A stretch of 63,694 nt of DNA, the filler included, from Collodictyon triciliatum (Eukaryota): the NCBI GenBank assembly GCA_043381765.1. It is 14 parts of 14 records of this genome, joined end to end, with 100 filler letters (N's around TTAATTAATTAA, not from the genome) between each part and the next. Parts side by side here need not be neighbours in the genome. Positions count along the whole stretch, not along the records: positions 21,952 to 30,714 come from JBHJMP010006281.1; positions 30,815 to 35,103 come from JBHJMP010006282.1; positions 35,204 to 39,490 come from JBHJMP010006283.1; 11 more parts are not named here. One strand, 5' to 3'. The notes under the pieces are model-generated. The model had not been told where the DNA came from, searched no databases, and worked only from the letters and a program-made list of their open reading frames with translations. Made by a program: the position numbers and the translations under genes. This document shows, piece after piece, positions 21,952-39,490 of this stretch. Numbering within the stretch: the stretch's first letter is position 1; the number at the start of each line of letters is the position of its first letter.

Positions 21952-22650
21952 AAAGACGATATAATTGAGCTCTGCAAAACAGAGCGATTTATTAGTCAGC
22001 AAACAAGTGTAAAGAATGCTTTAATTTTTTTAAAAAAGTCAGTTGTGGATGGTGTGGTAAAAGTCGAGTACAGCCAAAAAAACGAGGGGCGATTTTGGGG
22101 CAAGCCAGATATCAATGCGCTACCGAGATGGATTAAGCAGACACTATTACATCAAAAGTATGTAGACGTGGATATATCAAATTGCCATCCCAGCATCCTT
22201 TTAAAGCTGTGTAACAAGCATAACATAAAATGTGAGTCATTAACGCATTACTGTAATAATCGAGACTTATGTTTGTCTGAGATTATGGATATATACAAAT
22301 GCTCAAAACCAGATGCCAAAGACCTATTCAACATTATGAATTTTGGCGGAGGATTCACTACCTGGGTTGAAGACAAAAAAATTGTAGATTCAATTGAATC
22401 TGAATTTATAAAAACTTACTATGAAGAAGCCAAGAGAATCAAAGAACAATTTGCGGGTATCCCTGATTACAAAAAGTTTTTTGATATGGCCAAACAAGAA
22501 AAAGAAAATCCGTATGAAATAGTTAATAGTGGTATGGCATTGATTATGCAACACTACGAGTCTGTTTATCTCGTCAAAGCTGGAGTTTGTAAAAAATACA
22601 AATACCCAGCAATTGTATATCCCAGCTCACGATGGTTTTTATTTACATAA
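21952..22650 (+). CDS. TVpol (transposon-viral, family-A-related) polymerase/primase domain; 5'-truncated, continues by frameshift into the helicase ORF
   Basis: Frame is open from the contig edge. It contains GRFW, YVDVDISNCHPSIL (PolA motif A-like D.D..N.HP), DAKDLFNIMNFGG (motif B-like) and LIMQHYES. The motif C-like PAHDGFYL lies in the next frame. No introns. Confidence 0.8.
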   Translation, partial: KDDIIELCKTERFISQQTSVKNALIFLKKSVVDGVVKVEYSQKNEGRFWGKPDINALPRWIKQTLLHQKYVDVDISNCHPSILLKLCNKHNIKCESLTHYCNNRDLCLSEIMDIYKCSKPDAKDLFNIMNFGGGFTTWVEDKKIVDSIESEFIKTYYEEAKRIKEQFAGIPDYKKFFDMAKQEKENPYEIVNSGMALIMQHYESVYLVKAGVCKKYKYPAIVYPSSRWFLFT

Positions 22651-24403
22651 AGACCGATACAAGGCAATGGGCCTGGAAAAATTCATAAAAATGATAAAGG
22701 AATATGTAGATGAACCGGGCATAACTTTTATTCACAAAGAAATGACCGAGATAATTGACCTCAAGACAGCGGATAAAGTAAACATTAATTTCTGGGACCC
22801 GTTTGATTTGTACAATATCGCCTCTGAGATTGCGAAAAAAAAAGAGTTTACGGCTTGTAACGGAGTCTTGTATGTTTACAATGGCGTTTATTGGGAGGCT
22901 GACACACCGGAAAAAAACTATTACCAATTCGCAAAATATTGGAGCAACAATTATTATTATGTCATTTACGATTTGATGAAGCAAGCATTTGGTCAAAATG
23001 AACAACCAACAAAAAAATCAAACAAAAGAAAAAGAGGTAAACAACCAGAATCTGAAATGGCTGAAGATGCAAATACAAAAGCCATTCAGGCACATCAAAA
23101 ATCGTGGGAGAGAGAATTAATAAAGTCCCGTGTGTTTAATTTCAAGGCGCTCGTGACACTAGTTTTACAAAGACTCGAAAACTCGACACTGAAATTTAAC
23201 GAGAAACCGAATTTATTCGCCTTCAATAACGCAATATTTGATTTACAGCTAAACAAATTTATTGAACCCAAGCCAGAACAGTATATATCAGAGACCTGTG
23301 GATACAATTATGAAGCTGACCCAGAATTAGATGCCAAAAAAATAAAGTTGATGGAAATATTCAAAACAATTCTACCGCTGGAATACGACTTGAAGCTTTT
23401 TTTGAAATACTGCTCGACGGGTCTCACCGGGACACTGATAGAAAAAATTTGTTTGGCACACGGGTCTGGACGAAATGGCAAAGGTTTATTTCAGGAGTTC
23501 AACAAATACGCACTGGGTAACTACTTTTATGCGCTGGCACCAAGTAGTATTCAAACCAAACTTAAAGAAGGAACAAATCAAGCTTTGGCAAATATCGAGG
23601 GCAAGCGACTCATTACAACCTCGGAACCAGACCAAGGTGAATTAATTAATACCAGTACACTGAAATCACTCACAGGCTGCTCGGTCATCAACGCACGAGG
23701 TCTTTATTCAAAAAAGACAGACACCATAAATTGCGGGACTTTTATTTTAGAGTGTAACAGCAAACCAAAACTTGATGTTGTAGAACAGGCAATCACACAG
23801 AGGCTATTTGTAATACATTTTCCTATCAAGTTTATCGAAAAAGAAGTGTATGATGGTCTGGAGGATAAAGATGGGTATGGCATCGTGAATATCAAATACA
23901 AGGACCTTGATTTTTTAAAAACTAATAAAATTGCGTATTTTCATATTTTGGCCGATGAGTATCAGAATTACATTAAAAATCCATCTTTTCTTTTACAAGA
24001 AGGCAGTCGGTCGCATCAAATTACAGAAACTTATTTTCAGGAATCCGATGACTTTACAAGTTGGTTTTACACAAACTATAAAAAAGTTGACTCTGCTTTT
24101 GAAGACATTGTTTATTTAGCTGATATTCGTAAAGACTACATTGAGTTTAAAAAACAATCAGAATATAAGTTTGAAATGAAAATTGGGACATTTTACGAAA
24201 AAATGACAGTGTGTCCTATGCTCAGCAAATACGTCAAACAGCGGGATGTGGTGTATAAAAAAGAAAAATTGAAAAAGCCTATAATAATTGGACACCAAAA
24301 ATTGAGTTTACAGGAAAAAGAAGATGTCGAAGTCGAAATGGTAAATGAAATAGGAAGCGAGCCGCTTAAATCTGAAAACAAACCATCCTTTCTTTTAAAA
24401 TAA
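22580..24403 (+). CDS. TVpol C-terminus plus D5-like superfamily 3 helicase
   Basis: AHDGF, D5_N-type KPNLFAFNNAIFDLQLNKFIEPKPEQYIS, Walker A HGSGRNGKG, Walker B GKRLITTSEP, INARGLY, motif C FILECNSKP, and Arg-finger AITQRLFVIHF. Intronless. Confidence 0.9.
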   Translation: MEFVKNTNTQQLYIPAHDGFYLHKDRYKAMGLEKFIKMIKEYVDEPGITFIHKEMTEIIDLKTADKVNINFWDPFDLYNIASEIAKKKEFTACNGVLYVYNGVYWEADTPEKNYYQFAKYWSNNYYYVIYDLMKQAFGQNEQPTKKSNKRKRGKQPESEMAEDANTKAIQAHQKSWERELIKSRVFNFKALVTLVLQRLENSTLKFNEKPNLFAFNNAIFDLQLNKFIEPKPEQYISETCGYNYEADPELDAKKIKLMEIFKTILPLEYDLKLFLKYCSTGLTGTLIEKICLAHGSGRNGKGLFQEFNKYALGNYFYALAPSSIQTKLKEGTNQALANIEGKRLITTSEPDQGELINTSTLKSLTGCSVINARGLYSKKTDTINCGTFILECNSKPKLDVVEQAITQRLFVIHFPIKFIEKEVYDGLEDKDGYGIVNIKYKDLDFLKTNKIAYFHILADEYQNYIKNPSFLLQEGSRSHQITETYFQESDDFTSWFYTNYKKVDSAFEDIVYLADIRKDYIEFKKQSEYKFEMKIGTFYEKMTVCPMLSKYVKQRDVVYKKEKLKKPIIIGHQKLSLQEKEDVEVEMVNEIGSEPLKSENKPSFLLK

Positions 24404-24437
24404 ATTGAAAAAAATAAATTGCGTCTATAAATACAAT

Positions 24438-24626
24438 TTATTCACTGTTCGATGTGGTTGGACTGTCCAAACTTTTCTCATTAACTTTTCTTCTTTTTAC
24501 TGCGTAAATTGGATTATACTTGTCTGCGTATTGCTTCTTTTTTTTCCATACTGCGATGATGTGCTTGACTTTGTCGGATGTAAATCCAAATTCTTGAAGA
24601 CAGCGGAGCTCGAACTGAGGATCCAT
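24438..24626 (-). CDS. Small basic hypothetical protein (MDPQFELRCLQEFGF..., ~62 aa)
   Basis: Fills the space between the helicase and the next gene, convergent with the helicase. Contains NLS-like WKKKKQ and VKRRK. Confidence 0.5.
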   Translation of the reverse strand: MDPQFELRCLQEFGFTSDKVKHIIAVWKKKKQYADKYNPIYAVKRRKVNEKSLDSPTTSNSE

Positions 24627-38200: not shown

Positions 38201-39251
38201 TTAATTTTGCTTCAGCATCGTCCCATTCTGTATCATCATAATCTCCTGAGGGTACAAACTTTGGAAAGTCTGTGTATTGTAAAGCACCCCGTGCACGCAG
38301 CAATTGTAAAATGCGATTACAAAGTGCGTGTACGTGTGTCGGGACCGGTATCCCCCTTTTGCGTTTCTGTAGGTACTCTAAAACAAAAATCTCTTTGGTG
38401 GTGGACGAAAAGGTGTTTCGAAGCAGGCCGTAACGAGCACTAATTTGGTCAGGGTCTAATGTAACTGTATTTTCATCGTCTGTTTCTTCTTCTTCTGCCG
38501 CTACTGTTTCATCATTTTTAACTGGTGAGCCATCTGGTGAGCCCGACTCGGCGGATTGATAACCTCTTTCTTTTGCTTCTTGGTCTTCATCAAATTGGTT
38601 TGGGTCTGCTTCTCTAAATTCATCGGTTTGACCTGTTTCGCCATCGGTTTGACCTGTTTCGCCATCTGATTGGGCTTCGTCATCTGACTCGGCATCATCA
38701 TCTTCTCGGGCTCCTGGTGATTCTTCTGTTAATTCACTTTTTGCACGAGAAGGTGCTTTTGATTGAGCAGGAGTAATAAGATCAACTTCCTCGCCGGCTT
38801 CTTGCTCCCCTGGATCATATTCAACAGGTTCTCTAGGTTTTTGTGGTTTTAAATTTAACTTCACATCTCTATAGGTTTTACCTTGTATTGTTAAACGTTT
38901 TGCCAATGCTCTTTGAAAGAAAACTGTGCCTAATCTATCACTAGCACCAGGAATAGTTCTATCTGCATACATTTGATAAATTTCACCTGGTGGCCTATTT
39001 TTAAAATCATCTGCTGCAGCTTTAAACGACTTAATTGCAGTATCTTGGGGGTATTCCAACAAAACAATTCGCTTTATAATTGCTGCATTAATAGATTTTG
39101 GTTTTCTCTCAGGATGTTTTTGCACTGGAAGCAAAAAATCAAATAACTCTTTTAATACTATGGGTTCTTGCTCAACTTTAAATTTTAGTTTTTTGACGTC
39201 TTCAAGATTTTGTTGGTATGCTGTTTCAAATTGTTTTTCATTTGATCCCAT
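35204..39251 (-). CDS. Very large intronless coiled-coil/low-complexity orphan protein (>1,340 aa, 3'-truncated)
   Basis: Over 4 kb uninterrupted frame from MGSNEKQF, with an acidic region, long Q/E/R/L heptad tracts, TP/SP-rich linkers, a 21-nt tandem duplication (DGETGQT x2, ~38625-38667) and an internal repeat (KRANEEQARNQEL / NRANVEQARNQQL). Confidence 0.85.
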
Positions 39252-39283
39252 AAACAAGCTTATATTTTTATCTTGGGAAATGT

Positions 39284-39490
39284 ATGATTGTAAATTACGC
39301 ACAACGAGGAGCACGAGGAGTAGGTAGATTTCTTACCACATCAACTAACAGAGCTATTCAAAGATTGGAGGGACTCAACGACGTATATAACAGACTAGAC
39401 GATGCGAGTATGGGGTTGGTTGATAATCTACTTACAACAAGTGGAGTAAAGCCAGCCATCCAAACATTTACCAACCCTTTGGTCTCTAGC
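39284..39490 (+). CDS. Divergent hypothetical ORF, truncated at the contig end
   Basis: MIVNYAQRGARGVGRFLTTSTNRAIQRLEGLNDVYNRLDDASMGLVDNLL..., open to the edge, protein-like composition. Confidence 0.5.

Follow-up and report, generated by a model that had tools for sequence, protein, structure and literature searches.

The window analysed here, a 63,694-nucleotide (nt) stretch of the Collodictyon triciliatum assembly GCA_043381765.1, contains among its eukaryotic contigs three gene-dense pieces, which we call A (21952-25612), B (26428-30714) and C (35204-39490). We found that A and B together (21952-30714) probably form a single segment, truncated at either end, of a small virus-like element with integrating double-stranded DNA from the virophage/polinton-like virus (PLV) supergroup. 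The visible genes include a two-domain replicase, in which a family-A-polymerase-like TVpol domain is joined to a superfamily 3 (SF3) helicase (TVpol-S3H), and the C-terminal part of an rve-type integrase. To judge from its sequence, this copy is probably endogenous and decaying, because the frame break that splits its replicase lies outside a homopolymer; relatives of at least 85% nucleotide likeness, present in freshwater and subsurface metagenomes, look intact, unlike this copy.

The replicase carries most of the evidence on affiliation. The first of its two open reading frames (ORFs), which is cut in 5', is over 210 amino acids (aa) 94% identical to P0001 (815 aa) and 87% identical to P0002 (827 aa), two intact fused relatives that hold both domains in a single frame, and 29-30% identical to P0006 and P0014. 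In the second ORF (22544-24403), Pfam recognizes D5_N (5e-9) and DUF5906 (3.5e-8), and a profile of the replicase family compared with known structures retrieves the poxvirus D5 primase-helicase at 4.6e-34. Concerning the polymerase part, an AlphaFold2 (AF2) model built on an alignment of 10 sequences has a core (residues 60-210) with a predicted local distance difference test score (pLDDT) of 85-95. A search of BFVD with this model gave 8 matches at E <= 0.001, among them the replication proteins of the Zamilon and Qinghai Lake virophages. In a PDB-wide search the 14 top rows consist without exception of family A DNA polymerases and RNA polymerases of the T7/N4 type; their Z scores are modest (7.1-4.0, with 126-159 residues aligned), and the list is uniform. 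D72, D74, N77, H79 and K123 are invariant across the 10-sequence alignment, and a conserved D-G block lies in the second ORF, past the frame break; these conserved acidic and basic blocks are what we take to be polymerase motifs A, B and C. The original prediction of a TVpol-SF3 helicase is thus borne out, the helicase by Pfam and the TVpol domain by alignment and fold matches.

The domain also leads to viral genomes. A profile search of IMG/VR with the replicase gave 421 related stretches, from which 80 loci were kept. In six of them (L002-L006 and L033) the match extends to the TVpol domain, with 26-32% identity. Two, L002 and L005, belong to virophages that each have the two Sputnik major capsid protein domains, to which L002 adds a V18/19 penton; L004 is the same virus as L005, and both encode an A32-like ATPase. 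A tyrosine recombinase is present in all three. TVpol conservation extends over P0006, P0014, L002 and L005, and the relatives in L002 and L005, together with the virophage folds, agree with the earlier proposal of a replicase of the virophage/PLV kind.

In this copy the TVpol and helicase domains have no common frame: the first ORF ends at a stop produced by the break, whereas P0001, P0002 and the contigs of the metagenome runs X1-X3 (introduced below) read both domains in one frame. A length difference in X1, X2 and X3 (the three of the four runs with cover at the break) restores both halves to one frame, and the break is accompanied by a further in-frame length difference of 9 nt.

Metagenomes also provide the evidence that A and B belong together. 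When A alone was used as the query, 24 runs were listed, of which 20, from 13 studies and mostly freshwater, share words of A (0.07-0.41). Four runs from four studies (X1-X4) were then compared with A and B at a likeness of at least 85%; although found through A only, all four cover A and also 14-15 of the 15 bins of B. Two X3 contigs bridge the pieces, one joining 25181 to 26761 and so leaving out the integrase and a hairpin-forming region, the other joining 26717 to 21952, so that 26428-26717 is followed by 114 nt and then by the start of the replicase. Because X1-X4 were found through A and cover B, and because the X3 contigs bridge both, A and B are linked in the relatives. The X3 letters ahead of 26428-26717 appear to open the integrase gene on the opposite strand. 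X2 keeps the order of this assembly across 25181/25186 and has in addition a joint from 29778 to 25506; in X4, 24413 is joined to 27021. In the relatives, then, the module made of integrase and hairpin stands at differing places, and deleted forms exist. A metagenome scan returned a single relative of the helicase, 31% identical, on the 3.5-kb contig L001, and missed the 24.9-kb contig that carries P0002.

The integrase is represented by its C-terminal 141 aa, which run into a stretch of 815 N between A and B. A phmmer search of 1.84 billion representatives gave four matches, the best being P0037 (403 aa; E 1.7e-49, 65% identity), with residues 1-141 aligned on its 261-402. P0037 (8.2e-11) and P0038 carry Pfam rve above the cutoff, and P0040, also aligned, has it below; a profile of the family retrieves retroviral integrase cores at 1.5e-10. 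The integrase C-terminus that had been called from the sequence is therefore confirmed through a relative with an rve core. The missing portion amounts to about 260 residues, or about 780 nt, which fits the 815 N, so that the integrase core is probably concealed in the N run. The integrase ORF is extended past 25612 by loose ends of X1 and X2 contigs, and an X3 loose end before 26428, taken on the minus strand, finishes with an initiation codon and two further codons in agreement with the beginning of P0037.

Tail to tail with the integrase lies a gene for a 160-aa protein, whose translation closes on an RGRP core flanked by K/R. This ORF has no Pfam family at the cutoff, AT_hook included, and only two weak matches, of unknown function, among the PHROGs. 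The AT-hook protein previously announced thus stands as regards the RGRP core in the translation, while Pfam AT_hook is not reported for it. As a separate observation, the C-terminal ~60 residues of P0038 contain two such AT-hook-like RGRP cores fused to the integrase tail; an RGRP core that is part of the integrase in one case and on a separate 160-aa protein in the other hints at a shared DNA-tethering role.

B opens with a non-coding region, which we call R, adjacent to where the integrase gene begins; its 36-nt inverted repeat has arms that are 94% complementary and form a long hairpin. Its core motif occurs twice, against 0.06 expected, and as single-stranded DNA the region folds at -44.1 kcal/mol, against -21.1 +/- 3.0 for shuffled sequences (z -7.7; 0 of 200 shuffles as good). 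In X3 this hairpin region is positioned 114 nt upstream of the replicase start. Apart from this internal inverted repeat, none of the repeats of at least 16 nt appears meaningful.

The remainder of B is occupied by orphan ORFs. The 983-aa ORF has P0035 and P0036 (1022 aa), encoded on contigs of 12.7 and 10.1 kb, as its only relatives, at 68% and 65% identity, and no Pfam, PHROG or usable Atlas lead (best Atlas score 0.78). Compared with these relatives, its final ~25 residues fall in a different frame, and the tail of P0035 matches the other frame at 29696-29764, at an A10 run. For the 286-aa ORF that follows, Pfam, PHROG and Atlas likewise offer no lead; beyond a one-letter difference from it at an A7 run (near 30612), X1 and X3 contigs keep another frame open up to the contig end. 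With the replicase, this brings to three the frame breaks that separate this copy from its relatives. The large ORFs had been described as orphans, and this holds for the 983-aa ORF, with two relatives only, and for the large ORF of C, which has no match.

Table 1. Features of pieces A, B and C, in coordinates of the window.
Feature	Position	Strand	Evidence
TVpol (family-A-polymerase-like) domain ORF, 5'-cut	21952-22650	+	Relatives, AF2 model, fold matches
Replicase remainder in another frame: last polymerase block, D5_N, SF3 helicase	22544-24403	+	Pfam, profile
Replicase frame break, non-homopolymer	22570-22615 (near 22578)	+	Overlapping ORFs in different frames
62-aa ORF, weak gene call	24441-24629	-	ORF only
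160-aa ORF with C-terminal AT-hook-like RGRP core	24698-25180	+	Translation
rve-type integrase, C-terminal 141 aa, running into the N run	25186-25611	-	phmmer against P0037
815-N run, probably hiding the integrase core	25613-26427	.	Size fit, loose ends of relatives
Non-coding region R with 36-nt inverted repeat	26428-26754	.	Arms 26566-26601 and 26667-26702
983-aa orphan ORF	26755-29706	+	Two relatives, P0035 and P0036
Orphan ORF of 286 aa, probably truncated here	29787-30647	+	ORF; X1/X3 comparison
First part of another ORF, or in relatives the extension of the 286-aa ORF; truncated by contig end	30651-30714	+	
1351-aa coiled-coil-rich orphan ORF, 3'-cut	35204-39257	-	ORF
Divergent ORF, 69 aa or longer, truncated by contig end	39284-39490	+	Start ~33 nt from the 1351-aa ORF start

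The layout of the window sets A, B and C apart from the other contigs. Counted on stop-to-stop ORFs of at least 100 aa, the fraction covered by ORFs is 0.92 in A, 0.94 in B and 0.96 in C, against 0.00-0.59 in the 13 remaining segments, in line with the original prediction of almost fully coding pieces. That account also held the pieces to be free of simple sequence repeats, which is right for A and B (none of the 58 tandem-repeat rows of the window). C has two rows, at 38621-38703, both of them in-frame coding repeats with units of 21 and 18 nt; the remaining contigs have 56, often at their ends. The small intergenic gaps that it reported were recovered in A and B (3-80 nt), with the single exception of the non-coding stretch of ~327 nt at 26428-26754, which it had missed. 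Its division of the element into three contigs does not stand. The contigs of the window are ~4.28-4.29 kb each, with an N44-TTAATTAATTAA-N44 spacer at every junction, and since no spacer of this type interrupts the 815 N that separate A from B, the two are most likely a single scaffold of 8763 positions. The neighbouring contigs are eukaryotic (TMTC, Hus1, spliced P4-ATPase exons), and the contig at 30815-35103, already taken for host sequence, indeed has P4-ATPase-like exons with short introns between them. The G+C content is 0.35-0.36 in A and B and 0.42 in C. An Rfam scan of the window gave no match, and scans for sigma-70 promoters and terminators gave results at chance level only.

Several further features of the window and of the IMG/VR loci were noted. 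The host contigs begin or end in simple repeats (for example 4192-4292, 8786-8888, 13176-13292, 17564-17654, 21752-21851 and 61491-61595), and the assembly therefore breaks there; the termini of A, B and C fall within coding sequence, unlike those of the host contigs. The very AT-rich contig at 4393-8685 (G+C content 0.26) is occupied in large part by a satellite-like tandem array at 5723-7765 with units of ~180 and 366 nt and 71-77% matches. A stretch of 71 nt is 98.6% identical between two host contigs (15079-15149 and 12054-12124) and is likely a simple repeat, because 12054-12124 falls in a TAATAA array (12013-12124). A second long N run (515 N at 49143-49657) lies inside a contig, again without spacer, and may hide real sequence. 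The 62-aa ORF of A has no family in Pfam or PHROG scans, and its 3' part is swapped for other letters in one X3 contig. Among the IMG/VR loci, L003 has at 1925-6523 a ribonucleotide reductase gene split by Hint and LAGLIDADG (intein) domains, ~3 kb from its TVpol-S3H gene. In L033, a 26.5-kb contig, the TVpol-S3H gene adjoins orphans of 1390, 798 and 582 aa without Pfam family (5834-12659), a layout of large orphans that resembles that of the element described here, without sequence similarity.

If A and B are indeed part of an integrating virus-like element, their genes would fit together as follows. The SF3 helicase would unwind the DNA, and the TVpol domain would prime and copy it, possibly starting at the hairpin region. 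The rve integrase would insert the element DNA into a host chromosome, assisted by binding of the AT-hook protein to AT-rich DNA. Capsid genes, if any, would sit in the part of the element that is out of view.

Several observations weigh against this assignment. The visible ORFs of an element cut at both ends gave no match to a capsid, penton, packaging ATPase or protease; Pfam and PHROG searches and repeat searches of the visible sequence agree here with the earlier statement that neither a capsid module nor terminal inverted repeats (TIRs) could be seen. No TIR, target site duplication (TSD) or repeat common to the pieces was seen, the ends of the element being out of view, and no host junction was seen. 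Outside the replicase, no protein of the window has a relative in 81 viral loci (the tblastn search with the capsid proteins of L002 and L005 had the fetched loci as its target), and in IMG/VR no close relative turned up for the helicase, the 983-aa ORF or the integrase, the last queried with P0037 and a profile. The AF2 model of the 983-aa protein, built on three sequences, is mostly helical but too poor for a fold search (pLDDT 40.8). A and B cannot be told from the host contigs by their tetranucleotide composition, and the 8763 positions of A plus B misfit neighbours of near-constant ~4.28-4.29 kb. Two of the three frame breaks, at the A7 and A10 runs, may be sequencing errors. Finally, TVpol matches also turn up in much larger viruses: L003 is a 361-kb giant-virus contig with ribonucleotide reductase, capping enzyme and YqaJ recombinase, L006 belongs to a giant-virus bin, and the BFVD matches include proteins of Pyramimonas orientalis virus and Catovirus.

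Among the alternatives is a free, non-integrated virus or episome co-assembled with the eukaryote, whose frame breaks would be assembly errors; we consider it unlikely, though by no means negligible. It would account for the lack of visible host flanks and for the two breaks in A runs, and it could draw on X3, a 1.66-Gbase metagenome in which related sequences reach a word depth of ~14-29 across A and B. Against it, the depth of Logan contigs is no measure of copy number, and there is the replicase break, which lies outside a homopolymer and comes with the additional 9-nt in-frame difference.

An alternative that bears on extent rather than on nature is that C, too, belongs to the element as its third piece, as was proposed when A, B and C were taken for one element; that proposal holds for A and B as a virus-like element, and for C we find it doubtful. 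C equals A and B in gene density (0.96), its two divergent starts are ~33 nt apart, and its third-codon G+C content of 0.28 comes near the 0.22 and 0.25 found for the genes of B. Yet its 1351-aa ORF has no Pfam, PHROG, IMG/VR or prokaryote-genome relative, none of 8000 candidates matches its residues 1-700, and the divergent ORF has no family in Pfam or PHROG. C shares with A or B neither repeat nor similarity, and BLASTP of the 983-aa protein against the C protein gave nothing (best E 0.11). The overall G+C content of C differs from that of A and B, as noted above, and some host contigs correlate with them in tetranucleotides at least as well as C does (0.53 and 0.50). We observed in addition that the acidic region of the C ORF contains a perfect in-frame tandem duplication of 21 nt at 38621-38662.

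An origin of A, B and perhaps C from a far larger virus genome, or from a giant endogenous viral element, appears improbable to us. The replicase relatives in L003, with its inteins in ribonucleotide reductase, and in L006 would suit such an origin, as would the Pyramimonas orientalis virus and Catovirus fold matches, the orphan ORFs of ~1000-1400 aa and the very short intergenic gaps. However, no giant-virus core gene, such as the NCLDV capsid, PolB, RNA polymerase or capping enzyme, was found in the visible ORFs of the 12.2 kb of A, B and C, a length too short for this to decide the matter, and a mimivirus-type early promoter motif is not enriched (19 occurrences against 16.0 +/- 4.3 expected). 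The rve integrase tail to tail with an AT-hook gene also speaks against a larger virus, and the rearranged and internally deleted forms seen in metagenomes are what would be expected of a small repeated element.

We likewise give little credence to a capsid-less integrating replicon, transposon or plasmid-like, that would carry replicase, integrase and accessory genes and make no particles of its own. The 8.0 kb of readable sequence without a morphogenesis gene and the mostly helical prediction for the 983-aa protein, itself of low confidence, are compatible with it, and PolA and AEP replicase genes may self-mobilise, according to the accessible part of one account (10.64898/2026.10.13.758929). 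Against it, the element is cut at both ends, its relatives lie on contigs of up to 24.9 kb, and the nearest replicase relatives with known context belong to capsid-encoding virophages. A phage origin was rejected, as phage records match the helicase part only, at ~24% identity, and none of the 308 covers 80% of the query.

Taking A and B as a small integrating virus-like element, its closest counterparts by replicase are the Sputnik/Zamilon-type virophages. They share the same two-domain, V13-like replicase, with ~29-34% full-length similarity to L002, L004 and L005, and the fold of the Zamilon and Qinghai Lake replication proteins. L002, L004 and L005 differ in having a tyrosine recombinase where an rve integrase is found here, their other genes have no match in the element, and its visible part has no capsid module. 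TVpol-S3H is known from Sputnik, OLV and YSLV1, as the accessible text of PMC3671162 describes.

Polintons/Mavericks and Mavirus-type virophages also have an integrase of the rve type that includes a C-terminal domain, and they integrate, a lifestyle that we presume for the element as well. They encode a protein-primed PolB, whereas the visible part of this element has TVpol-S3H; no PolB family was found in its visible ORFs, so that it does not qualify as a Polinton/Maverick sensu stricto, and neither TIRs nor TSDs were seen.

Concerning PLVs, PgVV, PLV-YSL1, PLV-RED1 and the cryptophyte cluster C1 resemble the element in replicase architecture and freshwater abundance, and differ in having mostly tyrosine recombinases, as far as the accessible parts of PMC4642659 and PMC12220804 go. 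In cluster C1, YREC (tyrosine recombinase) occurs in 232 of 298 members and rve-INT (rve integrase) in only 2 of 298 (PMC12220804, in part), and in the 2015 set the portion available reports RVE from only one integrated element (PMC4642659).

The nearest parallels to the combination seen here come from protist genomes. Endogenous virophages and PLVs are described as widespread in protists, with protein-primed PolB or a primase-helicase and with a tyrosine recombinase or rve (PMC10120064, accessible part). The available sections of two further accounts list PolA-S3H among the replicase types of Halocafeteria seosinensis endogenous virophages (10.64898/2026.07.28.741278) and primase-helicase fusions together with an rve-type integrase in Tyrannomonas regina PLVs (PMC12747079). 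Compared by description, not by sequence, and within those sections, the Halocafeteria and Tyrannomonas elements share with ours a replicase other than protein-primed PolB, an RVE integrase and a palindromic DNA element; their palindromes stand in terminal repeats, whereas the hairpin is internal in the part visible here, and they are defined by capsid genes, none of which is in view here. Replicases are moreover exchanged widely, PolA-S3H being common, in what could be consulted of 10.64898/2026.10.13.758929 and PMC12220804. Because published PLV and virophage accounts pair such replicases with rve integrases, the module set of the element is already known in kind. The novelty earlier claimed for the pairing of TVpol with an rve integrase is accordingly not supported, given PolA-S3H among endogenous virophage replicases (10.64898/2026.07.28.741278) and the wide shuffling of replicases (10.64898/2026.10.13.758929), on the evidence of the portions of both sources at hand.

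A bolder proposal would make the element a member of a lineage, widespread in freshwater, that combines TVpol-S3H and an rve integrase with conserved, mostly helical proteins of ~1000 aa in place of a recognisable double jelly-roll capsid module, and whose integrase and hairpin move as a unit. We regard this as a long shot. If it were true, the lineage would consist of elements that replicate themselves and integrate without any capsid, or else of viruses whose structural module is of a new type.

The advance made here is incremental, as the module set has been published and the capsid genes, ends and junctions that would tell virus from transposon lie beyond view. Endogenous virophages and PLVs shape protist genomes and can shield their hosts from giant viruses. 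To these the element adds a lineage whose genes, replicase and integrase aside, are almost without relatives in very large databases, and which is nonetheless present in the freshwater metagenomes of many studies. The variable placing of its integrase-plus-hairpin module offers a concrete example of module shuffling in these viruses.

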